Position numbers and translations under genes: made by a program. Source: a virus (taxonomy: Duplodnaviria > Heunggongvirae > Uroviricota > Caudoviricetes). From it: a DNA stretch of 51,664 nt. A model generated the notes under the pieces. It had not been told where the DNA came from. It saw only the letters and a program-made list of their open reading frames with translations, and ran no database searches. How positions within the stretch are numbered: the first letter of the stretch is position 1; each line of letters begins with the position of its first letter. Of this stretch, positions 20 to 26,869 are shown one piece after another. The stretch is taken from the IMG/VR virus record IMGVR_UViG_2585427970_000003, one strand, 5' to 3'.

Positions 20-1315
20 TTAATTTTTCATTGCTTCGTTATGGGGCATGGTTGGGGCAAACTCGCTTAACTGTGTATTTAACAAAGCTACCTGTGCATT
101 ATTGTTTTCAGACATCCATTTTCCGTATACCTGAAATACCATTTGCGCATCTGCATGGCCCATCTGGTTTGCTATAAATGCCGGGTTAGCACCAGCTGTC
201 AGCGACCAGCAGGCATAAGTATGTCTCGACTGATATGATTTTCGATGGCGGAGTCCGGCACGTTTTATCGCTGCGTCCCACATCTGCCTTATTGAGTCAA
301 CGGTAAAATGGTCACCATAATTTTTTACTCTCGCTGACACTTCAGGTTGAAAAACAAAGGTGCATTTTTGTTTTTCTGTTCTGCCATACTCTCTGAGGTG
401 AACATCAATGATATGCTCTTTGCTCAGTCTCGTTAATGTCATCTGACTCCGGAGAGCGTCGATTGCTGGCTTAATAAGATGAATGACCCGATTGGTTCCC
501 GCCTGTGTTTTTGGTACCGTGAAACGGTCTTTTGCTAAATTTCTCCTGATCATCATTGTTCCATTTTTCAGATCTATGTCCTCCCATCCAAGTGCACACA
601 GCTCACCAGGGCGAACTCCAGTATAAACAGAAACACACCATAAATTTTTTGCTTGCTGATTTCTGCACGCATCGATAAGACGGATAAATTCTTCCCGCGA
701 AAGAGGATCCGGAATGGTTCTTGATTCCTTTAATGGCGAGATCCCCTTAAACGGATTATCTGCCAGGTAACCGTTATCAACACCAAACTGGAACACGGCG
801 TTAAGATTTGTCATGTAATTATTTACAGTTACAGCCGATCTCCCTGGTTGTGTAACAATATAGTTACTTTTGGGGATCTGGTATCCAGTCAGTAACTCTT
901 TACGAACCTCCAGTAATTTTTCTTTATTAATCGATGAGGCAAGATTTTTTTCACCGATTATGCTCAGGATATTTTTGATGACGGCACGGTATGTGTTGAG
1001 TGATGTTTTGGCGACTTCAGTTTCTTTCAGTGCCAGAAATTTTTCAGCCAGTTCTTTTATGGTTAAATCTTGTCGGGCCTCACCAAATTTTTCCAGATTG
1101 CGTGAGGAGGGAAACTGTTTTGCATAGTCGAAAACACCAGTTTTTATTGCGTAACAAACAGAGGAGCGTAGTTCACCTGCAACGCGCCTGTTTTTTGCTG
1201 TGTCAGGAACCCCCAGATTTTCCCTGACTCTTACGTCTTTATAAACAAACCAGATACGTAATTTCCCTCCATGGTTTTCCACGCCTGTCGGATATTTCAT
1301 TTCAACTTCTCTCAT
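20..1315 (-). CDS. Phage tyrosine integrase
   Basis: 431-aa ORF at the prophage edge, C-terminal region with conserved His/Arg/Tyr-containing segment (SRHTYACWSL ... VFQVYGKW). Alternative start at Met6 (1300). Confidence 0.85.
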   Translation of the reverse strand: MREVEMKYPTGVENHGGKLRIWFVYKDVRVRENLGVPDTAKNRRVAGELRSSVCYAIKTGVFDYAKQFPSSRNLEKFGEARQDLTIKELAEKFLALKETEVAKTSLNTYRAVIKNILSIIGEKNLASSINKEKLLEVRKELLTGYQIPKSNYIVTQPGRSAVTVNNYMTNLNAVFQFGVDNGYLADNPFKGISPLKESRTIPDPLSREEFIRLIDACRNQQAKNLWCVSVYTGVRPGELCALGWEDIDLKNGTMMIRRNLAKDRFTVPKTQAGTNRVIHLIKPAIDALRSQMTLTRLSKEHIIDVHLREYGRTEKQKCTFVFQPEVSARVKNYGDHFTVDSIRQMWDAAIKRAGLRHRKSYQSRHTYACWSLTAGANPAFIANQMGHADAQMVFQVYGKWMSENNNAQVALLNTQLSEFAPTMPHNEAMKN

Positions 1316-1334
1316 TAGTTAGTGTGGCTTTTAG

Positions 1335-1586
1335 TCAAGTAAGATGACGTCTTGGTCTCGCTGATGCCTGGCGCTCAATCCAGCGATCAATTTCTTCCAG
1401 GTTGTAAAAGCATGGACTGTTATCCCATGGCATACCGTCATGAGCGACATGCTTATATTCCCTTCCTTCCATAAACGATTTTTCCCGGGCCTTTTTTAAC
1501 GTACCTTTTTTTATTCCTTTCAGCGCAATTAACTGCTCTTCGGATACCCATTTGCCGGGAGAGACAATCATGATTACTTCGCTCAT
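1335..1586 (-). CDS. Excisionase / AlpA-like DNA-binding protein
   Basis: 83-aa ORF immediately upstream of int on the same strand; small basic protein in the usual xis position. Confidence 0.55.
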   Translation of the reverse strand: MSEVIMIVSPGKWVSEEQLIALKGIKKGTLKKAREKSFMEGREYKHVAHDGMPWDNSPCFYNLEEIDRWIERQASARPRRHLT

Positions 1587-1658
1587 CGATTTCTTTATCT
1601 CTTACATCAGACGAGCGCCGGTTGCAGAATACCAGTCACAACCGGCGACAGTTGAACA

Positions 1659-4130
1659 TTAAGAATCAGCCTGACTCGGGATCAGTTTTTGCCAGATAAC
1701 TGAAACGTATTTTGCCTGGTAACGGGCGTCATCAAGTGCATTATGGCGCTCACCTTCGAATGGAATAGCCGTTCTGGCATCGAAGTCTATGGCTTTCCCC
1801 AGCTCAACGATTGTGCGTACATCGCGATCGTTGTAGTAACGCCACGGGCAGGGGATCCCCTGCCGTTCGTATGAACGGCGCAAAATCGTGTTGTCGAAGT
1901 TGGCTCCATTTCCCCAAACCTGAACAAAAAATTCACCGGAGTTTTCGTCGATAAATTCTCGCAATTGTAACAGTGCATCATCTAACGGGATTTCATCGGT
2001 CATAATGGCAGATTGCGCTTCGCGTGATTGCTTAAGCCACCATTTAATGGTGTCCCGATCAATGACTCCGCCAGCAGTTTCCAGATCGATAGTCTTACTA
2101 AATTCCGGTCCCATATCTCCGGTTTGCGGATCGAAAAATATTGCACCTATTGAGATGATCGGGGCATCAGGATTTTTTCCCATGGTTTCAAGGTCGATCA
2201 TTAGATGGTCACACGTCCTGCTGGTGGATGTGATTTCGTGATGACCGTTCACCTTAATTGGGTGATCTGCCGTCTCGCCAGTTTCATTATCGCTATTGTG
2301 ATGCTGATTGCCGCCAGTGTTCTCCTTGTGTGGATGTTCAGCGCCTTCCATTTCCTCCGGATCATCTTCCTGAACTTCAACCTGATACTCTTCATCGAAT
2401 GTTTCTTGGTATGTTGCGTCGCCCATCACCGCGCCACAATCAGGGCAGTTGCCGCCGCCGGTCTGACCGCAGGCGGTGCAGACTTTTTCCACTTCCTGTT
2501 GCGCTACTGGTTCAGGCTGTTTCGTTTCTGGCTCGTTTTGTAACGCATTTGGACTGTTTTGTTCCGCTTTTTGGTAGTTCCGTTCCGATTCATGCTGGTT
2601 CTGGTTCACAGAATCGCGGGTCTGGAGCCCCTTAACCCATTTCGGATCATTCGGGTCACTAATCCCTTCAACAAATTCACCACGTGATGCAGCAAGCAAC
2701 TTATCGGCGTCAGGCTGGCTGATATTGGCTGCCTGCATAATTTTGTTTACTTCGTCAGCGGTAACTTTTATCGGCTCTGGTTGTTCTGAATCTTCAGCGG
2801 TATCTACATTTTGCGGTAAGCCCGTGTATGTGCCATTTTTTCGGGCAAAATATTCTTCTTTTGTGATTTCAGTGGCGCCAGCAGCCAGTGCCTTATCCAG
2901 ACCAGAGAGTTTGTTTGCGCGACCGTATTTTTCTCCGTCCTTATCTGCGAAGAGGAAATAGAACGGCCCCTCACGCTCTACAGATGGTTCAGCTTCCGGC
3001 GCGGTTTCATTTTTTGGGATATCAGATACCTCAGTTTCCACTGCATCAGTTTGTGTTTCTGATGACTGGAGAACATCAACAGTGCCCAGGTCTGTTTCTT
3101 CATTCTCAAACACGCCCTTTGTCGTCAGGTATTCGCAGATATATTTGTTCAGTGCTACGGGATCTTTGTGAATGTCGATCGGACGCTCACGGACAAGGCC
3201 AAAAATAGTTTGGCGGTCGTAGCGAAGGGCATCAGGCTGTTTGCGCATTGATGCCGAGATACGCTTCCAGTCTTCGCGGTCGTTGTCGATAACTTCTTTT
3301 TTTGCCCAGCGATGGATGCTGCCGTCAATGTTTCCGGCATCCACATCACTAGGCCAGAGAGCGTAGGCCAGTTCGTCATCCAGTGTTTTCCATGTCTGCT
3401 TGTATTCGCGATGAATGGCAGCAATGACCGGGCTGATTTTTCCTGTTGAATTTTCAGTGTACTGTTGATTGGCTCTGGCGCGGGCGAGATCAACAACAGA
3501 CGTGTATTTTCCGGTTTCCTTGCGTTCACCTTCGCGACGTTTTTTCCAGATGCGCATCTCTGCCTGAATTTCGGGCCATTTAGCACCAGGAATACATTTA
3601 TGCTTAACCCACCCAATGGCGTGCAACTTAAGCTCCGGATACATGGCGTTAACTTCTGGCATTTTCATCAACGCTTCAACGATATGTCCGTCGAATGTTG
3701 CCATGTCTTCCTGCAACAATTCCTGTGCGCTAATAACCATATCAACGGTGATGTTTTCACATGTGTCGAACTTAACCATGACAGCGTTCTGTACTTCAGG
3801 GGCCAGCTTGTCAAAAGTGACGTTCATCGGATCGGATTCAGTCTCAACCGGGACAAAAGAAGCAGACTCCTCATCCCAGCGGTTTTCCTGCATATATTCA
3901 GCATCCCATGAATCGAGGGCAGGGCGGGGTATGCCAGGTTTATCCTCGCAGACAATAAATTTATAAGCGCAGTCCTGAGCAGCCGGATAATGTTCCAGGA
4001 ATTGCCAGTGAAATTTTGCTCGAGCACGGCGTTCGTCGCCAGCTTCAATGGCTGTGGCTACAGCCACAGCGCCTTCTTCCCTTGTTGCCAGTTCGTCAGG
4101 AATAGCGGCGCAAATAAAGACTTTACTCAT
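1659..4130 (-). CDS. RecE-like N-terminal region fused to a DnaQ-type (DEDDh) 3'-5' exonuclease domain
   Basis: C-terminal motifs DLETMG (Exo I), WGNGANFD (Exo II), HNALDDARY (Exo III); CxxC...CxxC cluster (CTACGQTGGGNCPDCG). Start chosen at MSKVF (4130) behind GAGG; ORF extends in frame to 4166. Probably the intact form of the gene truncated in K-12 Qin (ydfE), from memory. Confidence 0.7.
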   Translation of the reverse strand: MSKVFICAAIPDELATREEGAVAVATAIEAGDERRARAKFHWQFLEHYPAAQDCAYKFIVCEDKPGIPRPALDSWDAEYMQENRWDEESASFVPVETESDPMNVTFDKLAPEVQNAVMVKFDTCENITVDMVISAQELLQEDMATFDGHIVEALMKMPEVNAMYPELKLHAIGWVKHKCIPGAKWPEIQAEMRIWKKRREGERKETGKYTSVVDLARARANQQYTENSTGKISPVIAAIHREYKQTWKTLDDELAYALWPSDVDAGNIDGSIHRWAKKEVIDNDREDWKRISASMRKQPDALRYDRQTIFGLVRERPIDIHKDPVALNKYICEYLTTKGVFENEETDLGTVDVLQSSETQTDAVETEVSDIPKNETAPEAEPSVEREGPFYFLFADKDGEKYGRANKLSGLDKALAAGATEITKEEYFARKNGTYTGLPQNVDTAEDSEQPEPIKVTADEVNKIMQAANISQPDADKLLAASRGEFVEGISDPNDPKWVKGLQTRDSVNQNQHESERNYQKAEQNSPNALQNEPETKQPEPVAQQEVEKVCTACGQTGGGNCPDCGAVMGDATYQETFDEEYQVEVQEDDPEEMEGAEHPHKENTGGNQHHNSDNETGETADHPIKVNGHHEITSTSRTCDHLMIDLETMGKNPDAPIISIGAIFFDPQTGDMGPEFSKTIDLETAGGVIDRDTIKWWLKQSREAQSAIMTDEIPLDDALLQLREFIDENSGEFFVQVWGNGANFDNTILRRSYERQGIPCPWRYYNDRDVRTIVELGKAIDFDARTAIPFEGERHNALDDARYQAKYVSVIWQKLIPSQADS

Positions 4131-4222
4131 TTGTTTTAACCTCATGACAGATTTAAGGATGAACAAATCCCTGCCATTGCTGGCATATAAGAATGAAACC
4201 GGATATTTATTACGGAACTGTT

Positions 4223-4414
4223 TTAAAGACCTGCCGGGATTTCGATATTATCCTGGTGAATAACTTTATCGACCGGGTAACAGTTACCGGGAATTTTCTG
4301 TTCGGTTGCTGCAGTCATACACTCCTGCATTGTCCTGTGAACACTGACTGCAATATCAACTGGCTCTCCGGAAACAAGAAAAACTGTCAGAACAAGCACA
4401 AATGCTGAATTCAT
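4223..4414 (-). CDS. ydfD: YdfD small membrane lysis protein (63 aa)
   Basis: MNSAFVLVLTVFLVSGEP... N-terminal TM segment; length and position downstream of dicB match Qin ydfD; start overlaps dicB stop (ATGA). Confidence 0.7.
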   Translation of the reverse strand: MNSAFVLVLTVFLVSGEPVDIAVSVHRTMQECMTAATEQKIPGNCYPVDKVIHQDNIEIPAGL

Positions 4415-4599
4415 TGTGCACATCCTTTTGGCATCAGACGTAAACGAGCCAGCATTGAAACAATGCATATTTTATTTAATAGCTCCCGTTCTTGTTTTCT
4501 CTTGTTAATGGCATCTTCAGTAAATACTGGGTTACTGATAGTGACACCAATTTCAAAACAACCTTCAGACGTATTAACGTTTGGTAATAACGTTTTCAT
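4411..4599 (-). CDS. dicB: Cell division inhibitor DicB (62 aa)
   Basis: MKTLLPNVNTSEGCFEIGVTISNPVFTEDAINKRKQERELLNKICIVSMLARLRLMPKGCAQ matches DicB as I recall it; ORF track extends upstream to 4704, start taken at Met36. Confidence 0.85.
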   Translation of the reverse strand: MKTLLPNVNTSEGCFEIGVTISNPVFTEDAINKRKQERELLNKICIVSMLARLRLMPKGCAQ

Positions 4600-4773
4600 T
4601 ATCGCGTCCTCAACAATGAATTTTGTGATGCAGTGCCTGGTGCCTCCAGGTGACGTTAACCAGTTAACAATTAACGCCGGATACAGAGAATCCACCCATA
4701 ACACTGTTTTTGGTTTTAACTGTTCCGCGTGCGCTCAGCCGCATTCACCACATCACAAAATTCACTTTAAAAA

Positions 4774-4826
4774 GGGCGGCAGAGCAGTCACGGAGTAAAA
4801 CTGATACCGCCAAACGTCACCAGAAA
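4774..4826 (-). ncRNA. dicF: DicF small RNA
   Basis: Minus-strand sequence TTTCTGGTGACGTTTGGCGGTATCAGTTTTACTCCGTGACTGCTCTGCCGCCC followed by a T-run; matches the 53-nt DicF as recalled; lies between ydfC and dicB as in the dicB operon. Confidence 0.8.
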
Positions 4827-5166
4827 ATTGATAACAGAGGGCGTTGCAGCGGGGTTGTCACTTAAGCGTATGGTCAACCTGACAACCCGGTGTCCTCAAC
4901 GGGGAAGGAATAACCCCGCCATACTTACCGCCGCGCCATTTCGCGGGTTGCCACAACCGGAAGCGCACGGTCGACGAAAATTTAACGACAGGCTATCTAT
5001 GAACCAGCTACCTCGCCGTGCGCTTTCGCGTTATGGTCTGACTTTTCAGGGAAATATCCTTTCAGTAAACTGTCAGTTCCGGATGCGCACCCGTGTCCGG
5101 CGCACGCACTCCACCTCACCCGTGGAGAACTCCTTAATTACTAACCTTAGCTTTGTTGATTAGCTA

Positions 5167-5385
5167 CTAACGCGGGTATGTAATCATTCTGGCAATGCTT
5201 AATGCCGCTGCTTTTTCCAGATTGGTGATATCCTGCTCCAGAGCGGACAGATTTTCAGCCTGCTTAGCCCTGGCTTCATTAGCCCATTTCAGATCCTGCG
5301 CTGCATTAATTTTCTGGCGCATCCACTCATAAAGTTCATCATCGGTATAGTCTGGCGCGATGATGACGGGTTCTCGTTTCTGCAT
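5167..5385 (-). CDS. ydfC: YdfC (72 aa)
   Basis: 72-aa ORF in the expected position and order of the dicB operon. Confidence 0.65.
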   Translation of the reverse strand: MQKREPVIIAPDYTDDELYEWMRQKINAAQDLKWANEARAKQAENLSALEQDITNLEKAAALSIARMITYPR

Positions 5386-5414
5386 ACTGATTCCTCGCGG
5401 TGCTGTTTCGCTTA

Positions 5415-5543
5415 TCAGCCGTTAGATTTTGCCGAACTGGAAAGCGCCTGTTTAAACTCACTGAAGCTGAGAGCTTCTTCGCCTTCGGCAAGGCCTTCGA
5501 AGTATTCTTCGTAAGCCTTTTCCATGATTGTGTCGAAATCCAT
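5415..5543 (-). CDS. ydfB: YdfB (42 aa)
   Basis: Manual translation MDFDTIMEKAYEEYFEGLAEGEEALSFSEFKQALSSSAKSNG; below the ORF-track size cutoff. Confidence 0.6.
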   Translation of the reverse strand: MDFDTIMEKAYEEYFEGLAEGEEALSFSEFKQALSSSAKSNG

Positions 5544-5544
5544 A

Positions 5545-5700
5545 TCACTCACCTGAGTTTCTTTCCAGCCAGCGACGGGCACCATTTTCGGTTTTAAACG
5601 TTTTGCTTTTGGTATACGTCATTGCGGTGAACGTGCCGTCCTGGTTTGGAAACACGCCGTACACCAGAGATTCGTTGTTGCCAAGATCGATAGTATCCAT
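5545..5700 (-). CDS. ydfA: YdfA (51 aa)
   Basis: MDTIDLGNNESLVYGVFPNQDGTFTAMTYTKSKTFKTENGARRWLERNSGE; first gene leftward of dicA. Confidence 0.7.
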   Translation of the reverse strand: MDTIDLGNNESLVYGVFPNQDGTFTAMTYTKSKTFKTENGARRWLERNSGE

Positions 5701-5866
5701 GCTGACCTCATTTCCCCTTAACGCTGGGGTAGCGGAACTGTTTGCTGAGAACACCGTGCGGTGTGTTGATGCAAACAAGATTAGCCATGACTAACATATC
5801 GGTCAAGTGATTTTGTATGCTATAGCTAACATAATTGATGTGGTAAAAGATAACTCATTGATGATG

Positions 5867-6274
5867 TTATCTTTTATTTGTCCGCTGACGGGCTTTTAGT
5901 AATTCTTCAAAGAGTTTATTGAAGTTTTTTACTCGAGCTCGCATTTCGGCGAGCTGGGTATCCTGTTCTGATTCTGGCAGTGCATTAAACAGCTCAAGGA
6001 GCTCTAGTTCTTTGGGGGATAAGGCAACTGGCTTCTCAACAGGTGGTGTTGGTTGCTTGTCTTCATCGCCAAATAGAATCCATGTTGGTGAGCATTGCAA
6101 TACTTTGCTGAGGGCAAAAAGGTTCTTCCCTGTAGGTTCACTATCACCCCGTTCCCATTGTGATACAGACACATGGGAGATTTTCAGGGCTTTAGCAAGA
6201 GACCTTTGGGTGTGTTTGAGGTTTTTCCGACGATACCTGATGCGTTCGCCGATAGTTAAATTTTTTGTTTCCAT
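5867..6274 (-). CDS. dicA: DicA, CI-like HTH repressor
   Basis: 135-aa protein METKNLTIGERIRYRRKNLKHTQRSLAKALKISHVSVSQWERGD... (HTH_XRE), divergent from dicC. Confidence 0.9.
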   Translation of the reverse strand: METKNLTIGERIRYRRKNLKHTQRSLAKALKISHVSVSQWERGDSEPTGKNLFALSKVLQCSPTWILFGDEDKQPTPPVEKPVALSPKELELLELFNALPESEQDTQLAEMRARVKNFNKLFEELLKARQRTNKR

Positions 6275-6276
6275 AG

Positions 6277-6342
6277 TTAGCTAATGCTAAATCGTATTGA
6301 CTATGTTTTTGTTAACATCTATCTTGTTAGTTATGACTAACA
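6277..6342. promoter_or_regulatory. dicA/dicC divergent promoter-operator region
   Basis: Perfect palindromes TTAGC-TAAT-GCTAA (6277..6290) and TGTTAGT-TATG-ACTAACA (6325..6342); TTGACT -35-like hexamer at 6297..6302; the 10-mer ATGACTAACA recurs at 5787..5796 on the ydfA side of dicA. Confidence 0.55.
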
Positions 6343-6357
6343 ATAAAGGTGTTTTAA

Positions 6358-6588
6358 ATGCTTAAAACTGACGCTCTTTTGTATTTCGGTTCAAAAACAA
6401 AACTTGCACAAGCAGCAGGTATTCGTTTGGCTTCGCTTTATAGCTGGAAAGGGGATTTAGTTCCCGAAGGTCGCGCGATGCGTCTACAGGAGGCATCTGG
6501 CGGGGAGCTTCAGTATGATCCCAAAGTTTATGATGAATATCGTAAGACGAAGCGGGCGGGGCGGTTGAACAATGAAAATCACTCCTGA
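6358..6588 (+). CDS. dicC: DicC, Cro-like regulator
   Basis: 76-aa MLKTDALLYFGSKTKLAQAAGIRLASLYSWKGDLVPEG..., divergent from dicA. Confidence 0.85.
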   Translation: MLKTDALLYFGSKTKLAQAAGIRLASLYSWKGDLVPEGRAMRLQEASGGELQYDPKVYDEYRKTKRAGRLNNENHS

Positions 6589-7093
6589 ACAGGCTCGTGA
6601 GGCTCTGGATGCCTGGATATGTCGACCAGGAATGACACAGGAGCAGGCGACGATATTAATCACTGAAGCATTCTGGGCTTTGAAAGAGCGCCCGAACATC
6701 GATGTTCAGCGTGTCACATATGAAGGTGGCGCGATTGATCAGCGAGCGCTTGGCGTTAATCGAGTGAAGATATTTGAACGCTGGAAGGCTATCGACACCA
6801 GGGATAAGCGTGAAAAGTTCACGGCGCTAGTGCCTGCAATTATGGAGGCTATCCGGATTAATGATTTCAGGTTGTATCGTGAAATTACTGACGGAAAAAG
6901 CATCACGTGCATGATCGCCGGGTTAAACAAAGAATATGGCGATGTGGTGGAGTCCGGACTGCTTTTTGCTGATCCTGCCGTAGTGGATCGTGAAACTGAC
7001 GAACTTATAGAAAAAGCAATTGCTTTCAAACTTGCGTATCGACAGCAATACCAACAAAAAGCTGGATGGAATTATGAGCCTTCTTTTTGCTGA
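6572..7093 (+). CDS. YdaT-like protein (CII-position gene)
   Basis: 173 aa; shares the MKI..E......AW...KIF.RW...DT......ALVPAI pattern recalled from Rac YdaT; directly follows the cro-like gene. Confidence 0.5.
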   Translation: MKITPEQAREALDAWICRPGMTQEQATILITEAFWALKERPNIDVQRVTYEGGAIDQRALGVNRVKIFERWKAIDTRDKREKFTALVPAIMEAIRINDFRLYREITDGKSITCMIAGLNKEYGDVVESGLLFADPAVVDRETDELIEKAIAFKLAYRQQYQQKAGWNYEPSFC

Positions 7094-8039
7094 ACGCCCA
7101 CTGGTTATAAACACGCAGCTGGCAATGAAAATTGGCTTAAACGAAGCCATTGTTTTGCAACAACTGCACTACTGGTTGAGAGATACCAACTCCGGCATGG
7201 AATGTGATGGTGTTCGCTGGATTTATAACACAACGGAACAATGGCTGGAACAGTTCCCATTCTGGTCAGAGTCAACGTTAAAGCGCGCGTTTGCAAGTCT
7301 GAAAACGCTGGGGCTTTTGCGTTGTGAAAAGCTCAATAAATCAAAGCGCGATATGACCAATTTCTACACGATCAACTATGGGAGCGAGCTTTTAGATGGT
7401 GGCAAATTGAGCGAATCCATCGGTTCAAAATGCGCCGCTCCATCAGGTCAAAATGACACGATGGAAGAGGTCAAAATGAAACGCTCCATTGGTTCAAAAC
7501 GACCCAATGTCATCGGGTCAAAATGGCCTGATGATCTTACAGAGAATACAACAGAGATTACTACAGAGAATAAAAACACTTTTCGTCCGGAAGCTTCGCA
7601 ACCGGACCCGCAGACGACTGAACAGGATTTTTTAACCCGGAACTCCGACGCGGTTGTGTTTAGTGCGAAAAAACGCCAGTGGGGTAGCAGGGAGGATTTG
7701 GCGTGTGCGCAGTGGATCTGGGGGCGGATCGTGGGTCTCTACGAACAGGCAGCCAGTGATGATGGCGAGATCATGCGACCAAAAGAGCCTAACTGGACTG
7801 CCTGGGCCAATGACGTGCGCACAATGCGGATGCTGGATGGCAGAAGCCACAGACAAATTTGCGAAATGTTTGGTCGGGTTCAGCGAGATCCATTCTGGGT
7901 AAAAAACATCATGAGCCCGTCAAAGCTCCGCGAAAAATGGGACGAACTGGTCATCCGCCTGGGACGTTCACCTGTACAGCGTTGTGTTAATCATATTTCT
8001 GAACCGGATACAGAAATTCCGCCTGGTTTCAGAGGATAA
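7074..8039 (+). CDS. Replication initiator (O-like), iterons within coding sequence
   Basis: Central region encodes repeated IGSK peptides from five DNA iterons; ORF track starts at 7020 but ATG 7074 gives minimal overlap with upstream gene. Confidence 0.6.
   Translation: MSLLFAERPLVINTQLAMKIGLNEAIVLQQLHYWLRDTNSGMECDGVRWIYNTTEQWLEQFPFWSESTLKRAFASLKTLGLLRCEKLNKSKRDMTNFYTINYGSELLDGGKLSESIGSKCAAPSGQNDTMEEVKMKRSIGSKRPNVIGSKWPDDLTENTTEITTENKNTFRPEASQPDPQTTEQDFLTRNSDAVVFSAKKRQWGSREDLACAQWIWGRIVGLYEQAASDDGEIMRPKEPNWTAWANDVRTMRMLDGRSHRQICEMFGRVQRDPFWVKNIMSPSKLREKWDELVIRLGRSPVQRCVNHISEPDTEIPPGFRG
7416..7574. repeat. Putative replication origin: five ~23-bp-spaced iterons plus 3x ACAGAGA(A/T)TA repeats
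   Basis: Iterons with core GGT(T)CAAAA at 7422, 7446, 7469, 7491, 7515; followed by ACAGAGAATA (7541), ACAGAGATTA (7553), ACAGAGAATA (7565). Confidence 0.6.
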
Positions 8040-8079
8040 GTGTTGATTTCAGGTCATGAGGTAATTTTAAGGGGGACTT

Positions 8080-8502
8080 GTGGCAAAAGTTTTTACACAA
8101 GAAGAGCGGGAAAAAATTAAATGGCAGGTGGTGGAACTCGTGCGCCAGAGCGGCCGTGAGACGTTACGGCAACTGGAAGCTAAAACAGGTGCGACTAGAT
8201 ATCTGATGAGCGTTCTTGCCAGAGAGCTGGTAGCCAGTGGCGATGTATACAACTCCGGCTACGGGTTATTCCCCTCTGAACAGGCGCGTAAGGACTGGCA
8301 AAACGCCCGCAAAAAACTCTCGAGGGCAAAGGTGAAGAAACCTGCTGTGGTTGATCCGGACCTTATCTGGTCATCACCTGACGGAGAAATACGTCGCTAC
8401 GACAGTCGCCTAAACATAATCTGTCGCGAGTGCCGGAAGAGCGAAGTTATGCAGCGCATACTGGCTTTCTATCAGGGTAATTTTCAGGACGTGGCGCAGT
8501 GA
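8080..8502 (+). CDS. Hypothetical protein (140 aa)
   Basis: Intact ORF with no motif I can assign; stop overlaps the start of the methyltransferase remnant. Confidence 0.4.
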   Translation: MAKVFTQEEREKIKWQVVELVRQSGRETLRQLEAKTGATRYLMSVLARELVASGDVYNSGYGLFPSEQARKDWQNARKKLSRAKVKKPAVVDPDLIWSSPDGEIRRYDSRLNIICRECRKSEVMQRILAFYQGNFQDVAQ

Positions 8503-8945
8503 GTGCACCGGCAACCATTCTTGATATGTGCTGTGGCAGCCGCATGTTCTGGTTCGATAAGTCTGACGAACGGGCGATATTCAGCGATATCAGAAAAGAA
8601 GGATACACATTACGCAATGGGAGACGCTTGATTATCAGCCCTGACATTATCGCAGATTTTCGTGCATTATCATTTGCAGACGCATCTTTTTCGATGGTTG
8701 TATTAGACCCTCCGCATCTTGAGAGTGTTGGTGATAACGCCTGGATGGGAAAGAAATATGGACGGCTGAATAAAGATGCCTGGCGTGATGATTCGCGACA
8801 GAGATTTAAAGAAGCCTTTCGGGTGTTGAGGCCGCACGGCGTTCTGATTTTTTAATGGAATGAAACGCAAATACCGGTAAGCCAGATTCTGGCACTGACA
8901 GACAGAAAACCTGTTATCTGTCAACGAACAGGGAAAAAACGATAA
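8499..8945 (+). pseudogene. SAM-dependent amino-methyltransferase with premature in-frame TAA
   Basis: Motif I-like LDMCCGSRM and motif IV DPPH; TAA at 8853..8855 followed by 29 sense codons in the same frame (WNETQIPVSQILALTDRKPVICQRTGKKR) to TAA at 8943. Confidence 0.55.
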
Positions 8946-9117
8946 AACCCACTGGATTATTTTTATGAAAGAGGCATCCAGTGAGTAGATTCGTAAGGCT
9001 ACAGATACGTATATCTGAATAATTAAATTCAGTTCTGTAAATAAAATTTAATCCTTAACCGGATGGATTTCTGCACCCTCAGAACATCAGGAGGCCGCCC
9101 GAAAGGGCGGTAGTGAA

Positions 9118-9753
9118 ATGCGAAAGTTCAAAATTATTATTGAAACGGGAATAGCTGGTGGAGATTTTGAGGATGTATTCGAAGTGGACGATGACGCAAC
9201 ACCTGAGGAAATTCATGACGGAGCATAAGAAATTTTCTTTAACTACTGCAATTACTCATACCACGAAATAAAAGACGATGAGGAAGAACAAAGTGGCTGA
9301 TTTTTGTTCAGCTAAATATAACATCAGTTTTGAAGAGCGGGATGAACTATTAATGGACTATGGTGAGTTACGCGGTGGAAGTGCTGCTGATGTCGAATCC
9401 TAGCGTGATGACTATGAAGCGGGAAAAACTCCGGTCGAAGCATATTGTGATGAGTGGGGCGATGAATGAGCGAGATTAATTATCAGGAAGGGCATGAAAC
9501 GGCGGGGCAAGCAAAACCAGTGGCATGGCGATATCGCTACGTGAAAAAAGGCGTTACGGACTTTCAGGGGAAGTAGTGGTCTGGTGACTGGAAATATGTA
9601 CCGAAAAAAGAGGATTGTAACGACAGGCCGAACTATCAAATTCAGGCCTTATTCACTGCCTCACCAGTCCCAGTTACATCAGAAGAACTGGTTAAAGCTG
9701 TGCACTTTTATGAACAACTAAAACGCGAAAATCCACCAACATCCGGCAACTAG
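9118..9753 (+). pseudogene. Decayed acidic-protein gene(s): in-frame TAA/TAG stops and a frame change
   Basis: ORF from ATG 9118 has TAA at 9226 then continues to TGA 9298; ORF from GTG 9293 has in-frame TAG at 9401, ends 9469; ORF from ATG 9466 has in-frame TAG at 9574, ends 9753. Confidence 0.5.
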
Positions 9754-10007
9754 ATTAATGGATTAACTATGTCGGTTAAACGACCAGCCAACTGAAAAAG
9801 CGGAAACCTGATTACAGGTTGCCAGATAAGGCAATGAGCTACCTGGCGCGGAACGGACTGATAAGTATGGGGAATGTTTTACGATGAACCTTTAGACTAA
9901 AGAGTTTGTAACGCTATGTAAGTGATTTTTTCTGGTTTAGATATTTATATGTCCGGCCAAATTGAGGTGTGTTTAAATGTAATTGCACATTGATTGTAGG
10001 AGGAATA

Positions 10008-10187
10008 ATGAAAAACGCATTGCAGTTTTTGTTTGTTGCGTTCTGGTTGTTCGCATCATGTATGCCCATCATCTTCACAGCAAGGTATATGGAAAAAGTT
10101 GATGTTTTGATATTAATATTTGGATATATAAATGCCCTTTTTTTAGGGGTGTTCATGGCGGTCATGTGCATTGAATACTGGCGGTAA
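10008..10187 (+). CDS. Small hydrophobic membrane protein (59 aa, two predicted TM helices)
   Basis: MKNALQFLFVAFWLFASCMPIIFTARYMEKVDVLILIFGYINALFLGVFMAVMCIEYWR; AGGAGG at 9998..10003, 4 nt before ATG; AT-rich surroundings. Confidence 0.5.
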   Translation: MKNALQFLFVAFWLFASCMPIIFTARYMEKVDVLILIFGYINALFLGVFMAVMCIEYWR

Positions 10188-10521
10188 ATACAGCGAACTC
10201 CATTGGTTTAGTTGGATATTTACTGTGCTGGACAAAAACGGTTTGCGGGGAAATCTTAGTTAAGTAGAATGACTGCGGGTGCTTGAGGCTATCTGCCTCG
10301 GGCATGGACACCAACGGCAGATAGAGAAAAGCCCCAGTTAACATTACGCGTCCTGCAAGACGCTTAACATTAATCTGAGGCCAATTTCATGCTAGACACA
10401 TGTAGGTTAGCCTCTTACGTGCCGAAAGGCACGGAGAAGCAGGCTATTGTTAACACCAAGCTGTAATGTCCCCTTTGAACCATTCTAAAATGTCCCCAGA
10501 CAATTCTCTGGGGGATTTTTC

Positions 10522-11835
10522 ATGATCAAAGAGACTGTTACGATGAGTCATAAGGAACTCCACCGACTTCAGATTATTCAGGAACAAGCTGCGGCACGCA
10601 TTGGCATTTCTATTCGGCAGGTTAAACGTCTGGTGCAACGGTATAGAAATGAAGGGCCTTCTGGTCTGGTTTCCCACCGACGTGGAAAGCGTCCTAATAA
10701 TTCCTTTTCTACTGAATTCAGAGCAACAGTAATTTCACTCCTCAAAGGCCGTTACGCTGATTTTGGACCTACGTTTGCGTGCGAAAAATTGCGCGAGATA
10801 CACGGTTTATCTTTATCCGTTGAAACTCTCAGAAAGTGGATGATAGAAGAGGGGTTATGGCGTGAACGCCGTCGTAAAATTGCCCGTATATATCAACGCC
10901 GCATGCGACGACCATCTTACGGTGAACTGATCCAGATTGATGGCTCACCTCATGACTGGTTTGAAAATCGAGGCCCCAGATGTACACTGATCGTTTTCAT
11001 TGATGATGCCACCAGTGCGTTGATGGCGTTGCGTTTTGTGCCTGCTGAAACAACCCGGGCTTACATGGAAACCCTCCGGGGTTACCTTAATGATCATGGC
11101 GTACCGCTCGCTCTCTACTCTGATAGACACAGTATATTCAGGGTAAATAACCCAGAGCGGGAAGGTGAGCTGACCCAGTTCACTCGTGCGATAAAGACAC
11201 TGGGCATCGAGCCAATCCATGCCAACAGCCCGCAGGCAAAAGGGCGGGTAGAGCGCGCCAATCAGACACTACAGGACAGGCTGGTCAAAGAAATGCGGCT
11301 TCAGAATATCAGTGATATTGAAACAGCAAATGCATGGTTGCCGACCTTTATTGAAGCCTATAACAACCGGTTCGCTACGTCGCCTCGTACTACTGATAAT
11401 GCTCATCTTGATGTGCACCATTCTGAAGAGGAACTGGGTTATATCTTCAGCCTACAGGCGAAGCGCGTTCTGTCTAAAAATCTCACTTTCCAGTACAAAA
11501 GCAGTGCGTTTCAGGTACGCAGTGAGGGCCGGGGATATCGACTTAGGCATTCGGTTGTTACTGTATGCGAGAACTTTGACGGTGAAATTAACGTTCTGTA
11601 TGACGGGAAAGCGCTGGGCTGGGAAAAGTATGTTGATGGCCCGGAGCCTATACCACTGGATGATGAAAAGAGTGTCCATGAACGAGTGGATAATGCCCGT
11701 ATTGATTTACGCTCAAAATACTATGTTAAACCTAAAGCTGACCATCCCTGGCTTACGCGCCGAACGCAAAGTCATCAGCAAGTTAAGCCCCCGAAGTTAC
11801 CTAAAAAGAAGCCTGATCCCGATAAAAAAGATTGA
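10522..11835 (+). CDS. DDE-type transposase / integrase-core-domain protein (IS481/ISNCY-like)
   Basis: 437 aa; N-terminal HTH, then catalytic-type motifs IQIDGS ... LYSDRHSIF ... KGRVERANQ, basic C-terminal tail. Element ends not resolved. Confidence 0.65.
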   Translation: MIKETVTMSHKELHRLQIIQEQAAARIGISIRQVKRLVQRYRNEGPSGLVSHRRGKRPNNSFSTEFRATVISLLKGRYADFGPTFACEKLREIHGLSLSVETLRKWMIEEGLWRERRRKIARIYQRRMRRPSYGELIQIDGSPHDWFENRGPRCTLIVFIDDATSALMALRFVPAETTRAYMETLRGYLNDHGVPLALYSDRHSIFRVNNPEREGELTQFTRAIKTLGIEPIHANSPQAKGRVERANQTLQDRLVKEMRLQNISDIETANAWLPTFIEAYNNRFATSPRTTDNAHLDVHHSEEELGYIFSLQAKRVLSKNLTFQYKSSAFQVRSEGRGYRLRHSVVTVCENFDGEINVLYDGKALGWEKYVDGPEPIPLDDEKSVHERVDNARIDLRSKYYVKPKADHPWLTRRTQSHQQVKPPKLPKKKPDPDKKD

Positions 11836-13734: not shown

Positions 13735-13890
13735 ATGAAGCAGCAAAAGGCGATGTTAATCGCCCTGATCGTCATCTGTTTAACCGTCATAGTGACGGCA
13801 CTGGTAACGAGGAAAGACCTCTGCGAGGTACGAATCCGAACCGGCCAGACGGAGGTCGCTGTCTTCACAGCTTACGAACCTGAGGAGTAA
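13735..13890 (+). CDS. hokD: HokD (RelF) Hok-family membrane toxin
   Basis: Manual translation MKQQKAMLIALIVICLTVIVTALVTRKDLCEVRIRTGQTEVAVFTAYEPEE (51 aa, below ORF-track cutoff). Confidence 0.85.
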   Translation: MKQQKAMLIALIVICLTVIVTALVTRKDLCEVRIRTGQTEVAVFTAYEPEE

Positions 13891-14106: not shown

Positions 14107-14358
14107 ATGATGAACATCGAAGAACTGCGTAAAATTTTTTGTGAAGATGGCCTCTATGCTGTGTGCGTTGAAAATGGAAATCTTGTTAGTCATTACCGCA
14201 TTATGTGTTTGCGAAAGAATGGGGCTGCGTTAATTAATTTTGTGGATGCTCGGGTCACGGACGGATTTATCTTGCGCGAAGGTGAGTTTGTCACTTCATT
14301 ACAGGCATTGAAAGAGATCGGAATAAAAGCTGGCTTTTCTGCTTTTTCAGGAGAATAA
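14107..14358 (+). CDS. rem: Rem
   Basis: 83 aa MMNIEELRKIFCEDGLYAVCVENGNLVSHYRIMCLRKNGAALINF... Confidence 0.7.
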   Translation: MMNIEELRKIFCEDGLYAVCVENGNLVSHYRIMCLRKNGAALINFVDARVTDGFILREGEFVTSLQALKEIGIKAGFSAFSGE

Positions 14359-17154: not shown

Positions 17155-17454
17155 AAAAATTCCTTAATACTGATAACTTGGCGCACTATACACACGTTCC
17201 TGAAGAAAGCTATAGTTTTTTGATGGGGTTGAAGATGGCTGGATGTCTAAAATAAACATTGCTTCATATGTTCAACTATGCGTTAATGATTGCGTCGGTT
17301 TGAAGAACAGACGATATACGAAGTAGTTTACTAAAGCAGTTCTCATTTCAGGTGTTATTCACTTATTCCTTCTTTGAGTCTCTCCAATTAAGTACGAAGT
17401 CGTTTCTGTTATGCAAACCATTTATGCCGAAAGGCTCAAGTTAAGGAATGTAGA

Positions 17455-17670
17455 ATGTCAAATAAAATGACTGGTTTAGTAAAATGGTTTAACGCTGATA
17501 AAGGTTTCGGCTTTATTTCTCCTGTTGATGGTAGTAAAGATGTGTTTGTGCATTTTTCTGCGATTCAGAATGATAATTATCGAACCTTATTTGAAGGTCA
17601 AAAGGTTACCTTCTCTATAGAGAGTGGTGCTAAAGGTCCTGCAGCAGCAAATGTCATCATTACTGATTAA
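17455..17670 (+). CDS. cspB: Cold shock protein CspB
   Basis: 71 aa [71 protein letters not shown]. Confidence 0.9.
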
Positions 17671-17951
17671 AATTCATCGCTCGTCTGTATACGATAACGA
17701 AGAAGGCTGATGCCTGAGTAGAGATACGGACAGAGTAGTGAATATTGGATCTCTTTAATAAAAAGTAAGGAGGTCCAATACATGAAACAATGGCTAGCAT
17801 ATTTGGCAAAATCTTAATCAGGAAAAGTATGCTAACCATTGTGGTGAAGTGCAGGTTTGCTGCATGAATAGTTTTACAGCAGAAGCTAACTGCTGGCATG
17901 GCAAAACAAAGTGCGTAAGTGGATGACTCCCACAAAAAGCACCACAATCTC

Positions 17952-19979: not shown

Positions 19980-20341
19980 GGTAATATTAAATCGGAACAT
20001 TTACATCGCGGAATGTAAAATTTAAATAAAAAGGACTCTTCCATGAGCCAAAATTCCTGAAATCTTAAGGGTAAGATAAAAGGTCTTAATCAGAATGACA
20101 CGTTTTATTAATAAATAAAGCTATTCTTTCATTGCTGTGTTTTTCTTTACAAAAGTAATCCTTGCTATGGGTGGTTAATCATGCGTTAATGGTGTTCTGG
20201 TTTGTTACAAATTTATCTGAAGCAGTCATTGTTATAATTTTATTATTTGTACCTCTTGAGATTTCCTTGTTGGTTTTTCTCTCTGATATTTTTTTTCGGA
20301 CCATTCTGCCCAAGGGCTAATTTCTTCAAAAGGTAATAATT

Positions 20342-20554
20342 ATGTCTAACAAAATGACTGGTTTAGTGAAATGGTTTAACCCTGAAAAAGGTTTTGGTTT
20401 CATCACGCCGAAAGATGGCAGCAAAGATGTGTTTGTCCATTTCTCAGCAATTCAGAGCAACGATTTCAAAACATTAACTGAGAATCAGGAAGTTGAATTT
20501 GGTATTGAGAACGGACCTAAAGGTCCTGCCGCTGTTCATGTAGTGGCGCTTTGA
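20342..20554 (+). CDS. cspI: Cold shock protein CspI
   Basis: 70 aa [70 protein letters not shown]. Confidence 0.9.
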
Positions 20555-20760
20555 GGTAGACAATATTACAAACCATATTCACTTTAGATGCCCGTGTTGT
20601 CATGGTTCCCAGTATAGAACATCATCTTTTGATGTTTCTGACATGAATCCTTTCGGGGCAAAATGTATCTTTTGTAAATCAATGATGATTACATTTGATA
20701 ATATTTCACAATACTTAAATGCCAGCCGTCTGTCGTTGGATTTAAAAAAGTGAAAATGAA

Positions 20761-20782
20761 GGCTCCTTCGGGAGCTTTTTTG
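20761..20782 (+). terminator. Intrinsic terminator
   Basis: GGCTCC-TTCG-GGAGC hairpin followed by TTTTTTG. Confidence 0.55.
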
Positions 20783-20825
20783 CTTGGTGTCTATTCGATG
20801 GATACTCACATACTACGGTAACATC

Positions 20826-23188: not shown

Positions 23189-26869
<3,681 letters not shown>

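Follow-up and report, generated by a model that had tools for sequence, protein, structure and literature searches.

The window analysed here is the whole 51,664-nt stretch of IMG/VR virus record IMGVR_UViG_2585427970_000003 (Duplodnaviria; Heunggongvirae; Uroviricota; Caudoviricetes), in which a compact set of genes and one small RNA lies on the minus strand, leftward from a repressor gene, with the following genes and control features.

5867..6274, minus strand: dicA, encoding the CI-like repressor of dicBp and dicC (NCBIfam NF007257 at 234.3 bits, cut-off 101; Pfam HTH_3; one synonymous SNP, at 6107)
6358..6588, plus strand: dicC, encoding a Cro-like repressor, divergent from dicA (NCBIfam NF007282, 159.5 bits against 130; identical to MG1655)
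6275..6357, no strand assigned: control region between dicA and dicC, in which 6325..6342 is a perfect TGTTAG-N6-CTAACA palindrome (0 mismatches)
5771..5831, minus strand: dicBp region, with putative -35 TTGACC (5806..5801), 17-nt spacer, putative -10 TAATCT (5783..5778), and a putative start near 5771
5545..5700, minus strand: ydfA (Pfam PF07151 DUF1391, 98.5 bits; ydfA in the K-12 annotation, identical)
5415..5543, minus strand: ydfB (identical to MG1655 b1572)
5167..5385, minus strand: ydfC (identical to MG1655 b1573)
4769..4826, minus strand: dicF, 53 nt (4826..4774), and its terminator U-run 4773..4769 (Rfam RF00039; identical to b1574; 5' end 4826 from the K-12 annotation)
4411..4599, minus strand: dicB, encoding a MinC-dependent division inhibitor (Pfam PF05358, 136.8 bits; NCBIfam NF049927, 132.8 against a cut-off of 100)
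4223..4414, minus strand: ydfD, encoding a lysis protein (Pfam PF07358, 91.1 bits; ydfD in the annotation)
14107..14358, plus strand: rem, encoding the antirepressor of DicA (83-aa ORF in a stretch 99.97% identical to MG1655; rem annotated in K-12)

Aligned to MG1655 1647620..1649985 (dicC to ydfD), window positions 4223..6588 on the minus strand gave 2,366 columns with 0 gaps and 2 mismatches, leaving 2,364 of 2,366 bases shared. One mismatch (6107) is a synonymous AGC/AGT change in a serine codon of dicA, and the other (5018) lies in the ydfC-dicF spacer, where a G-C here corresponds to a G-U in K-12. DicA, DicC, and DicB passed curated NCBIfam cut-offs, as did DicB, YdfA, and YdfD those of Pfam. 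A first-pass annotation made from the letters alone had placed ydfA, ydfB, ydfC, dicF, dicB, and ydfD in the K-12 order on the minus strand, leftward from dicA, and both the K-12 annotation and the alignment bear this out, the gene set and order downstream of dicA being those of the Qin-type operon. Its further claim of a complete DicA-controlled division-inhibition operon is supported by the family cut-offs and by the presence of only two silent or non-coding SNPs relative to K-12; judged from this identity, the locus reads as a complete, K-12-type, DicA-repressed dicB/dicF operon with all of its testable points correct. Because the sequence is identical to that of K-12, we apply the mechanism established in K-12 here. 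Since the operon, its control by DicA, DicC, and Rem, and the biogenesis of DicF by RNase III, RNase E, and an intrinsic terminator have all been published, this part of the finding is already known; as submitted, the operon is a textbook locus that matters only as correct annotation.

In K-12, DicA is a CI-like repressor that lacks a RecA cleavage site and keeps the operon off by binding the operators of dicBp and dicCp, with repression relieved by the prophage antirepressor Rem, by stochastic switching, or by stress (PMC10448788, PMC9438474, PMC5069750); Rem itself is the antirepressor of DicA, and the dicA-dicC intergenic region is a three-operator region (PMC10448788). Transcription from dicBp crosses ydfA, ydfB, and ydfC and mostly stops at the intrinsic terminator at the 3' end of DicF, with a part reading through into dicB and ydfD, whose products respectively recruit MinC against FtsZ and are lytic (PMC10448788, PMC9438474, PMC5069750). 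In the window, dicA and dicC diverge as in K-12, with dicA transcribed towards the operon, and the control regions, with their predicted DicA operators, match K-12 base for base. Operator-like half-palindromes lie in the dicBp region at 5779..5796 and 5814..5831 (2 mismatches each). We infer the dicBp hexamers and start site, since a generic promoter scan reported no dicBp. As an enriched signal, the pattern TGTTAG-N6-CTAACA was rejected (3 occurrences in the window against 1.43 expected, with 18 of 100 shuffles reaching 3), and these sites amount to consistency with the literature only, because the pattern was derived from those same sites.

The Rfam DicF model RF00039, whose gathering score is 48, matched 4774..4825 on the minus strand over its full length (model 1-52 of 52) at 76.7 bits (E = 2.9e-15), and the 53-nt dicF claimed at 4774..4826 was correctly placed. 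The alignment to K-12 that had been proposed as a check was run, and as dicF equals MG1655 b1574 at 53 of 53 positions, there are no substitutions in its seed or in either target-pairing region. Its terminator pairs GGCGGUA with UGCCGCC ahead of UUUUU (4773..4769), with a hairpin energy of -15.9 kcal/mol; it has the form of an intrinsic terminator and went unreported by a generic terminator scan. A predicted duplex between DicF and MG1655 ftsZ positions -29..+26 spans the Shine-Dalgarno sequence and start codon at -38.5 kcal/mol, an energy matched by 33 of 500 shuffled DicF sequences, and the DicF-ftsZ interaction has been experimentally established for the identical K-12 RNA (PMC9438474, PMC5069750). 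With Hfq, K-12 DicF pairs with the ftsZ translation-initiation region, manX, xylR, and pykA (PMC10448788, PMC9438474, PMC5069750), and the processed 53-nt form has been seen in vivo (PMC10448788).

DicF is cut from a longer transcript. In K-12, RNase III cleavage gives rise to the 5' end of a 190-nt species (PMC10448788), which accumulates in stationary phase (PMC10448788), RNase E afterwards generates the 5' terminus of the 53-nt DicF (PMC10448788, PMC9438474), and RNase III acting on read-through RNA yields a 72-nt form (PMC9438474). We place these events in the following features around dicF, where the ydfC-dicB spacer as a whole folds with z = -5.07.

4951..5036, minus strand: stem-loop with a nearly continuous 22-pair duplex (5036..5013/4951..4974), a predicted RNase III substrate at the 5' end of the 190-nt species
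4827..4842, minus strand: single-stranded linker GCCCUCUGUUAUCAAU, reaching up to the RNase E cut at the DicF 5' end
4615..4766, minus strand: 21-pair duplex (4766..4746/4615..4635) enclosing the dicF-dicB spacer, a predicted RNase III substrate at the 3' end of the 72-nt species

Going 190 nt upstream from the DicF terminator leads to 4958..4963, inside the 22-pair duplex, and with a start at 5771 the published +813/+814 RNase III cut falls at 4959/4958; the exact position is thus deduced from RNA lengths together with the putative transcription start, and the transcriptome-wide RNase III papers give no coordinate for dicF. This duplex appears in the minimum free energy (MFE) structure with pairing probabilities of 0.87-1.0 and an isolated-fold z of -3.3. 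Across 92 variants, 97.2% of its cells are paired, and six pairs vary one-sidedly, mostly from C-G to U-G or from G-C to G-U. Similarly, 72 nt counted from 4826 ends at 4755, inside the 21-pair duplex, which is 98.9% paired across the same number of variants, with G-U/G-C alternation at two pairs. Both long duplexes, predicted at pairing probabilities of 0.87-1.0, are of roughly the two-helical-turn length of an RNase III stem and contain 4958..4963 and ~4755, respectively, with the cleavage itself taken from the literature. In this model, RNase III cleavage in the 21-pair duplex would shorten the dicB leader as well.

Upstream of dicF, hairpins at 4852..4888 and 4901..4917 had been put forward as possible processing structures, and both inverted repeats are present. 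In hairpin 1, GGGUUGUCA (4888..4880) pairs with UGACAACCC (4860..4852) in nine perfect pairs around a 19-nt loop, and the core of hairpin 2 pairs GGGG (4917..4914) with CCCC (4904..4901). Folded in isolation, hairpin 1 reached -14.9 kcal/mol (z = -2.2), which 5 of 200 shuffles matched, and hairpin 2, extended to seven pairs (4920..4914/4904..4898), reached -10.8 kcal/mol (z = -2.2), which 6 of 200 shuffles matched, so that their energies alone are only modestly better than chance. Folding of a 137-nt fragment and comparison with relatives place both within a larger structure.

4843..4957, minus strand: conserved structured RNA domain, five helices in ~115 nt (from folding a 137-nt fragment)
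4957..4950/4843..4850, minus strand: closing stem of the domain (same fold)
4946..4942/4931..4935, minus strand: helix H0 (same fold)
4929..4927/4889..4891, minus strand: helix P2 (same fold)
4888..4880/4852..4860, minus strand: helix H1, with an inner 3-pair helix at 4879..4877/4865..4867 (same fold)
4920..4914/4898..4904, minus strand: helix H2 (same fold)
4852..4888, minus strand: hairpin 1, equal to H1, in every fold tried, with compensatory changes in 6 of 9 pairs
4898..4920, minus strand: hairpin 2, equal to H2, of which the earlier noted 4901..4917 is the well-supported 4-pair core

In a structure-blind MAFFT alignment of 63 distinct sequences, both partners had changed in 14 of the 35 domain pairs, where shuffles averaged 6.4 (0 of 500 reaching the observed count); 92.2% of cells were paired, and the covariation score was 0.182, compared with at most 0.087 when partners were slid. 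A model-fitted alignment agreed, with 18 of 35 pairs changed on both sides. RNAalifold recovered most of the helices, with the closing stem and H2 found partly, P2 one pair longer, and the base of H1 shortened. Hairpin 1 changed from U-A to C-G in 14 sequences and from G-C to A-U in four, for example, and in hairpin 2, which forms in the 137-nt fragment fold, pair 4917-4901 occurs as GC (30), UA (6), CG (3), and AU (1) and pair 4916-4902 as GC (40), AU (3), and GU (3); support for its outer three pairs is weak. The domain covariance model found one copy in the window, at 165 bits. The divergent copies come from Stx2c-type, cdtI, Salmonella, and P1/P7-type phages, and all of the covariation derives from such other lineages, since the domain is nearly invariant among window-type sequences: there, no pair in the helices near dicF had both partners replaced, and shifting hairpin 2 by 1-3 columns left its pairing just as good. 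The segment 4843..4957, between the RNase III and RNase E sites, is a conserved, covarying, five-helix RNA domain. By the covariation in divergent relatives, both hairpins are genuine RNA helices, two arms of this domain.

The published RNase III sites lie in the two other, longer predicted duplexes; both hairpins are, however, conserved covarying helices placed exactly between the RNase III and RNase E sites, and a role in processing is plausible on that ground. We infer that the domain most likely serves as a cis-acting folding and processing module for DicF-type sRNAs. In the mechanism proposed here, a first RNase III cut would fall in 5036..5013/4951..4974, the RNase E cut in 4827..4842, and a second RNase III cut in 4766..4746/4615..4635. 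The first of these would free bases 4957..4951 from the precursor duplex, whereupon they would close the domain, and the closed domain would keep the linker single-stranded for RNase E, fixing the 5' end of the DicF-type sRNA. The closing stem and hairpin 2 are missing from the MFE structure of the full-length precursor, as well as from that of 4769..4963, a 195-nt stretch close to the 190-nt species, and competing pairings exist. Overall, the best explanation, to which we assign a probability of roughly 0.93, makes the locus the early-left dicBF operon (ydfABC-dicF-dicB-ydfD) of a lambdoid prophage of the Qin type that functions as in K-12, with this putative role of the domain included.

The domain had no match in Rfam 15, and a full-text literature search for its sequence motifs returned nothing relevant. 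A tRNA or tRNA-like origin, an idea raised by its nearness to tRNA genes in P1-type phages, was rejected: ARAGORN found 0 genes in 4500..5300, the hairpin segment had no Rfam tRNA match at E <= 1, and the P1-type tRNAs lie ~500 nt beyond the homologous segment.

In many other phages, too, the domain stands ahead of DicF-like RNAs: among 48 sequence groups, 42 have a hairpin and U-run 36-83 nt past it, and a U-rich start before the stem recurs. In P1-type phages, all that comes after the domain is a terminator hairpin lacking an obvious seed, an arrangement that fits a pure sRNA-biogenesis role less well. The dicF-region block is 92-99.7% identical where neighbouring genes are 49-91% identical or replaced, and within one dicB allele class the dicF flanks have a pi of 0.017-0.020, compared with 0.049-0.055 at dicB/ydfD third codon positions. 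A DicB-anchored set from genome contigs comprised six loci, all Escherichia/Shigella except one record labelled as a Veillonella MAG, and the best 80 DicB-anchored viral loci added no divergence, all having DicB 97-100% identical. We tentatively propose, at somewhat less than even odds, that the domain represents an uncatalogued class of phage structured RNA, a conserved carrier found in the repressor-controlled early operons of lambdoid and P1-like phages, where it stands ahead of exchangeable sRNA modules that each combine a seed and a terminator (DicF and several DicF-like RNAs that differ at the 5' end). The carrier's own function would lie in RNase III/RNase E maturation, in terminator passage into dicB or ban, or in trans.

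Other explanations of the domain deserve weighing against its role as a processing module. The domain could instead be a cis-acting transcription element, a put- or nut-like processive antiterminator or read-through modulator that carries polymerase past DicF and later terminators for dicB, ydfD, exonuclease, xis, and int, and likewise in the P1 ban operon. We consider this unlikely, although several observations point its way: the domain sits just upstream of a strong intrinsic terminator in 42 of 48 groups, and the P1 copy lies ~45 nt past the C1-repressed Pban promoters, heading an operon with tRNAs, tci genes, and ban. Given its invariant single-stranded motifs, GGCGGUAAGUAUGG and the H1 loop GGUUGACCAU, the domain may present a binding surface, and no N gene is annotated in the Qin operon, but read-through transcripts exist (PMC10448788). 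The boxA-like motif (GUGCUCUCA, CGCUCUUUU) that precedes the closing stem in some lineages is, however, missing from the window type and from P1. Further, the window holds one domain copy rather than a left/right pair, the architecture is unlike put and the domain model has no match in the HK022 early region, and the Qin domain stands ~815 nt from the putative dicBp start. Transcript data weigh in the same direction: termination at dicF is plainly substantial, with RNA that stops at the dicF terminator present in the wild type and the read-through product building up only when RNase E had been inactivated (PMC10448788).

Alternatively, the excised fragment of ~116-132 nt, or the whole 190-nt species, may be a trans-acting RNA (a sponge, a protein-binding RNA, or an antisense RNA), with DicF as its terminator module, which strikes us as improbable. 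Identity to the window is nearly the same for the domain (0.984) as for DicF (0.988) in a DicF-anchored first locus set, whose anchoring on an exact DicF 19-mer biases conservation upwards, and within one allele class the domain has a pi of 0.020, compared with 0.039 for DicF outside the anchor. The domain is kept in lineages whose downstream seed and terminator have been replaced, its loops are invariant, and stationary-phase accumulation of the 190-nt species (PMC10448788) would suit such a product. Yet the DicF literature examined reports no function, protein partner, or target for that species, and complements to the invariant H1 loop in the window do not exceed chance. The H1 loop was accordingly rejected as an antisense seed against a window target, with only its own opposite strand matching and 3-mismatch hits at the level of chance.

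That the hairpins and the conservation of the dicF region are functionless, arising from chance inverted repeats in a G+C-rich spacer and from a recently spread mosaic block hitch-hiking with dicF, draws on isolated hairpin energies just ~2.2 sd better than shuffles, on window-type sequences that have no two-sided pair changes and a hairpin 2 that slides freely, and on the inflation of conservation in the 19-mer-anchored set, but is very improbable and already contradicted by covariation on both the MAFFT and model-fitted alignments, with many compensatory changes in both hairpins and the closing stem far above the shuffle and slide controls, a block that stays nearly identical beside diverged or replaced genes, and 2.5-3 times less diversity than at adjacent synonymous sites.

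As the two hairpins reveal, the 5' part of the 190-nt DicF precursor is a selected RNA fold rather than disposable spacer, common to Qin-type, Stx2c-type, cdtI, Salmonella, and P1/P7-type phages, with an attached sRNA that varies. If the fold controls sRNA maturation or read-through, it would explain both the 190-nt intermediate in the making of DicF and the balance between DicF (terminated) and DicB/YdfD (read-through). The domain also offers a simple handle for finding new DicF-like phage sRNAs. The strain has a fully intact division-inhibition and phage-defence module, repressor and antirepressor included.

Several known systems frame these results. The dicF-dicB spacer aligns over the entire model of STnc100 (RF02076), a candidate sRNA of Salmonella and other gammaproteobacteria, as a sub-threshold feature.

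4567..4776, minus strand: STnc100-like match (Rfam RF02076, 34.4 bits, E = 9e-6, gathering score 47, model 1-206 of 206)

A P1-type phage and a Shigella Stx phage have similar STnc100-like matches, and since 34.4 bits falls below the gathering score of 47, membership of this family is not established. The HK022 put RNAs (putL and putR), lambdoid cis-acting antiterminators, resemble the domain as structured early-operon RNAs upstream of terminators that work without a dedicated phage protein, a functional analogy only: put is ~70 nt with two stem-loops in a left/right pair near promoters, whereas the window domain is ~115 nt with five helices and single-copy. The domain as an HK022 put RNA was rejected on this difference in architecture and on the covariance model, which with filters off gave a best score of 7 bits (E = 0.59) on HK022 20000..40751. 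Against the Rfam DicF family, RF00039, the full-length match, the terminator hairpin with its U-run, and the ydfC-dicB location are all alike and DicF itself shows no difference; the Rfam model spans just the 52-53-nt sRNA, without the conserved upstream domain.

The P1 "dicF-like region" (NC_005856 68791..68892) is a genome-record label on part of the P1 domain copy, in the ban operon leader; this unexplained label is the only prior trace of the domain that we found. P1 68739..68833 is 77.6% identical to window 4946..4850 and scores 100.8 bits with the covariance model, and it has the same helices as the window, with compensatory changes, followed by an intrinsic terminator. The P1 copy differs in lying close to its C1-controlled promoters (~45 nt), whereas the Qin copy is ~815 nt into its operon, and in having a terminator hairpin without the DicF seed followed by tRNA-Asn and tRNA-Thr rather than dicB. 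Closest of all is the Qin cryptic prophage (MG1655 b1569-b1576), which is alike in genes, order, strand logic, and intergenic sequences, with an identical DicF and the rem antirepressor gene likewise further along the prophage. Around the operon, the prophage is less decayed here than Qin is in K-12: window 1180..3363 and 6852..11650 have no counterpart in MG1655, and the part that in K-12 holds the pseudogenes ydfE and intQ together with an IS2 remnant encodes here an intact 823-aa protein with an exonuclease domain, along with an excisionase and an integrase.

The minus strand of 3600..6600 was read, open reading frames were listed, and curated protein models and Rfam were applied, giving the following features.

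6358..6588, divergent from dicA: dicC (NF007282, 159.5 bits against a cut-off of 130)
5867..6274, minus: dicA (NF007257, 234 bits against a cut-off of 101)
5806..5778, minus: predicted promoter dicBp, read from the sequence (-35 TTGACC 5806..5801, 17-nt spacer, -10 TAATCT 5783..5778)
5545..5700, minus: ydfA (open reading frame; PF07151)
5415..5543, minus: ydfB (open reading frame)
5167..5385, minus: ydfC (open reading frame)
4774..4826, minus: dicF (Rfam DicF at 4774..4825, 76.7 bits; gathering score 48)
4411..4599, minus: dicB (PF05358 and NF049927)
4223..4414, minus: ydfD (PF07358)

The complete operon in K-12 order claimed by the first-pass annotation was borne out by these calls and by alignment to MG1655, which from dicC to the ydfD stop gave 2,366 columns with no gaps and two mismatches, namely a synonymous Ser codon in dicA (window 6107) and, as the sole non-coding difference, a C for the K-12 T at 5018 in the ydfC-dicF spacer. 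All 53 of 53 dicF positions are identical, so that no seed substitution speaks against DicF here, and the annotated genes of MG1655 and one matching genome agree in set and order. A 2.6-kb query is present at 100% identity in many complete E. coli genomes, and at least 80% of it in 854 of 5,426 genomes. The operon as first described is correct, and already known.

Because of this sequence identity, the K-12 mechanism was applied to the window. [quoted passage not shown] The 3′ end of 53-nt DicF is an intrinsic terminator, while a 72-nt form is made from read-through RNA by RNase III (PMC9438474). With Hfq, DicF represses ftsZ, manX, xylR, and pykA, and DicB works via MinC (PMC9438474, PMC5069750). 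In the window, rem is intact (14107..14358), and palindrome-like sites overlap dicBp and recur between dicA and dicC, which is a matter of consistency only; since a generic promoter scan did not return dicBp, we count it as inferred. The predicted DicF/ftsZ duplex over the Shine-Dalgarno sequence and start codon (-38.5 kcal/mol) was equalled by 33 of 500 shuffles, so that beyond the published experiments the computation gives little further support.

Compared with its shuffles, the 567-nt ydfC-dicB spacer is predicted to fold much more stably (z = -5.07), and it contains two long predicted duplexes.

5036..5013 with 4951..4974, minus: duplex A (22 pairs, probabilities 0.87-1.0; z = -3.3 in isolation)
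4766..4746 with 4615..4635, minus: duplex B (21 pairs without a mismatch, including two G-U pairs)

Measured from the terminator U-run, a length of 190 nt ends at 4958..4963, within the 3′ strand of duplex A, and the published cut at +813/+814 would correspond to 4959/4958 if transcription starts at 5771; position 4755, 72 nt from the DicF 5′ end, sits within duplex B. Among 92 distinct variants both duplexes are 97-99% paired, with one-sided changes, mostly G-C/G-U, and at 5018 the SNP gives duplex A a G-C pair here where K-12 has G-U. Both inverted repeats upstream of dicF that had been proposed as processing structures were found at 4852..4888 and 4901..4917. As the RNase III ends expected from the published species fall inside duplexes A and B, these hairpins are not the RNase III substrates; covariation nonetheless identifies both as real helices.

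They belong to a 115-nt domain (4843..4957, minus), whose fold was taken from the 137-nt fragment between the RNase III and RNase E sites.

4957..4950 with 4843..4850, minus: closing stem
4946..4942 with 4931..4935, minus: helix H0
4929..4927 with 4889..4891, minus: short helix
4920..4914 with 4898..4904, minus: helix H2, with 4901..4917 as its core
4888..4880 with 4852..4860, minus: helix H1, the hairpin at 4852..4888

Among window-type sequences the hairpins barely vary, which leaves covariation uninformative there, and the second hairpin pairs as well when slid. A search of phage genomes found the segment 4957..4835 on its own at 77-89% identity in Stx2c-converting phages, cdtI, Ayreon, 2H10, a Salmonella phage, P1, P7, SJ46, and RCS47, and a pattern leaving out the window's own type collected more than 120 further loci (62 distinct sequences, five of them chance matches). 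In a structure-blind alignment of 63 distinct sequences, the domain is paired in 92.2% of cells, and 14 of 35 pairs show both-sided changes (shuffle mean 6.4; 14 reached in 0 of 500 shuffles), involving 74 cells where shuffles give 18.7; covariation scores 0.182, and no more than 0.087 when partners are slid. From the same alignment, RNAalifold recovered most helices. It found H0, six H1 pairs, and the H1 inner helix completely, but the closing stem and H2 only partially; the short helix gained one pair at the cost of the H1 base. A structure-aware covariance-model alignment raised the both-sided changes to 18 of 35 pairs. Compensatory changes in divergent phage copies, at six of nine H1 pairs and with good support for four H2 core pairs though not for the outer three, thus establish both hairpins as genuine.

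Among 94 distinct operon versions, anchored on an exact 19-mer of DicF, which biases the comparison, mean identity to the window is 0.984 for 4950..4827, 0.988 for dicF, and 0.976 for the dicF-dicB spacer, against 0.888 for dicB, 0.852 for ydfD, and 0.667 for ydfC. In 23 sequences, the gene downstream shares just 49-91% identity with dicB (mean 71%), yet the block retains 92-99.7%; for a single dicB allele class, pi in the dicF flanks is 0.017-0.020, versus 0.049-0.055 at dicB/ydfD third codon positions. Despite the anchor bias, sharp boundaries together with the covariation speak for selection on the RNA. The full 396-nt dicF block occurs at ≥95% identity in 22 deposited phage genomes (including PV340562.1, LR597641.1, LC567828.1, and ON470580.1), so the module is not limited to defective prophages; according to a 2016 paper, ~2,000 phage genomes gave no match to DicF or DicB.

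We infer that the domain serves in DicF processing. In the nascent precursor, 4957..4951 would be paired upstream inside duplex A; RNase III would cleave within that duplex, and the freed 5′ end would pair with 4850..4843, closing the domain. With the domain closed, the 16-nt linker (4827..4842) would stay unpaired and open to RNase E, whose cut would fix the DicF 5′ end. Competing pairings between G-run and C-run segments (4944..4953 with 4880..4889 and 4905..4919 with 4849..4863, minus), in which UGGCAACCCG is able to pair with the H1 5′ arm and the H2 GCGGGG with CCCCGC at the H1 3′ base, may let the RNA adopt other folds before RNase III cuts and afterwards. A rival reading makes the domain a cis-acting element for terminator read-through, for which its leader position in P1 and the invariable downstream terminator speak: a strong hairpin with a U-run lies 36-83 nt past the closing stem in 42 of 48 sequence groups. 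Both the terminator stem and the stretch before it vary by group (DicF's UUUCUGGUGACG, CUUUGGCGGUACC, UUUUGGCGGGUAUCC; a bare terminator in P1), so conservation lies in the upstream fold and variation in the sRNA body. An independent trans-acting RNA is a further rival, and tRNA identity was ruled out by negative tRNA searches. We regard the conserved domain as a lead of moderate probability rather than an established discovery.

Downstream of the same domain, two loci (L009, L094) carry DicF with a replaced terminator stem-loop, and five (L298, L306, L307, L305, L221) carry DicF-like RNAs whose 5′ ends differ (CUUUGGCGGUACC..., UUUUGGCGGGUAUCC..., UUUCUGGUGAUUCGGCGG...); presumably these sRNAs have differing targets. 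A boxA-like motif (GUGCUCUCA, GUGCUCUCUU, CGCUCUUUU) directly 5′ of the closing stem occurs in several non-window lineages (e.g., L212 at ~1983..2005; L221, L225, L286), and in neither the window type nor P1.

Within the dicF-dicB spacer, ~50 nt upstream of dicB, AACGUCACC (4649..4657, minus) is a perfect 9-nt complement of the DicF 5′ pairing region GGUGACGUU (4813..4821, minus), with ~0.6 such matches expected by chance in the region and both arms near-invariant in 92 variants; read-through mRNA of the same operon could therefore be a pairing partner for DicF. A single-sequence minimum-free-energy prediction for the full spacer pairs CGCCCUC (4837..4843, minus), which lies a short way upstream of the RNase E site, with the dicB Shine-Dalgarno region GAGGACGCG (4603..4611, minus), and processing at dicF might thus unmask dicB translation. 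Rfam STnc100 matches 4567..4776 (minus) across all 206 model positions (34.4 bits, below the gathering score of 47; E = 9e-6), and similar sub-threshold matches lie in a P1-type phage (L211, 3844..3964) and in Shigella phage 75/02 Stx (L213, 2089..2287), where the match directly precedes kil.

The window starts at the integrase end of a Qin-type prophage and continues into the host chromosome, from ydfJ via the mar operon to uxaB. Compared with K-12 Qin, where an IS2 remnant breaks the pseudogenes ydfE and intQ, this prophage is less decayed, with an intact 823-aa protein (3′-5′ exonuclease domain at its C-terminal end), excisionase (xis), and integrase (int) at that position. Two stretches, 1180..3363 and 6852..11650, have no MG1655 counterpart; in place of the former K-12 has the IS2 remnant, and the latter holds ydaT-like, DUF977, methyltransferase, and other genes and, at 10277..10448 (plus), a full-length match to Rfam sok (hok/sok antitoxin RNA; 104 bits), flanked in the matching annotated genome by pseudogenes and an ISNCY transposase fragment, lacking an annotated hok gene, and distinct from the hokD locus (13735..13890). 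Gathering-level Rfam matches were also found for two cspA thermoregulator leaders (17294..17686 and 20196..20581, plus), where the K-12 prophage region has cspB and cspI, and for IS009 (48124..48322, plus) in the host part near uxaB. Elsewhere, a contig labelled as a Veillonella parvula MAG (L126, JAGZPX010000007.1) encodes DicB at 95% identity and is probably a mis-binned Escherichia prophage contig, and a 4.83-Mb 'DH5alpha' record (L001, NZ_CP026085.1) has a non-K-12, undeleted form of Qin and may not be a true K-12 derivative.

The window has one copy of the domain, which matched no Rfam 15 family at E ≤ 1. The HK022 early region, site of the put RNAs, holds no detectable relative, and put RNA architecture is unlike that of the domain. 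The only prior description found is a label in reference P1, where part of the domain is annotated 'dicF-like region'. In P1 the C1-repressed Pban promoters are ~45 nt upstream of this copy, and past it come a terminator hairpin, tRNA-Asn, tRNA-Thr, the tci genes, and ban.
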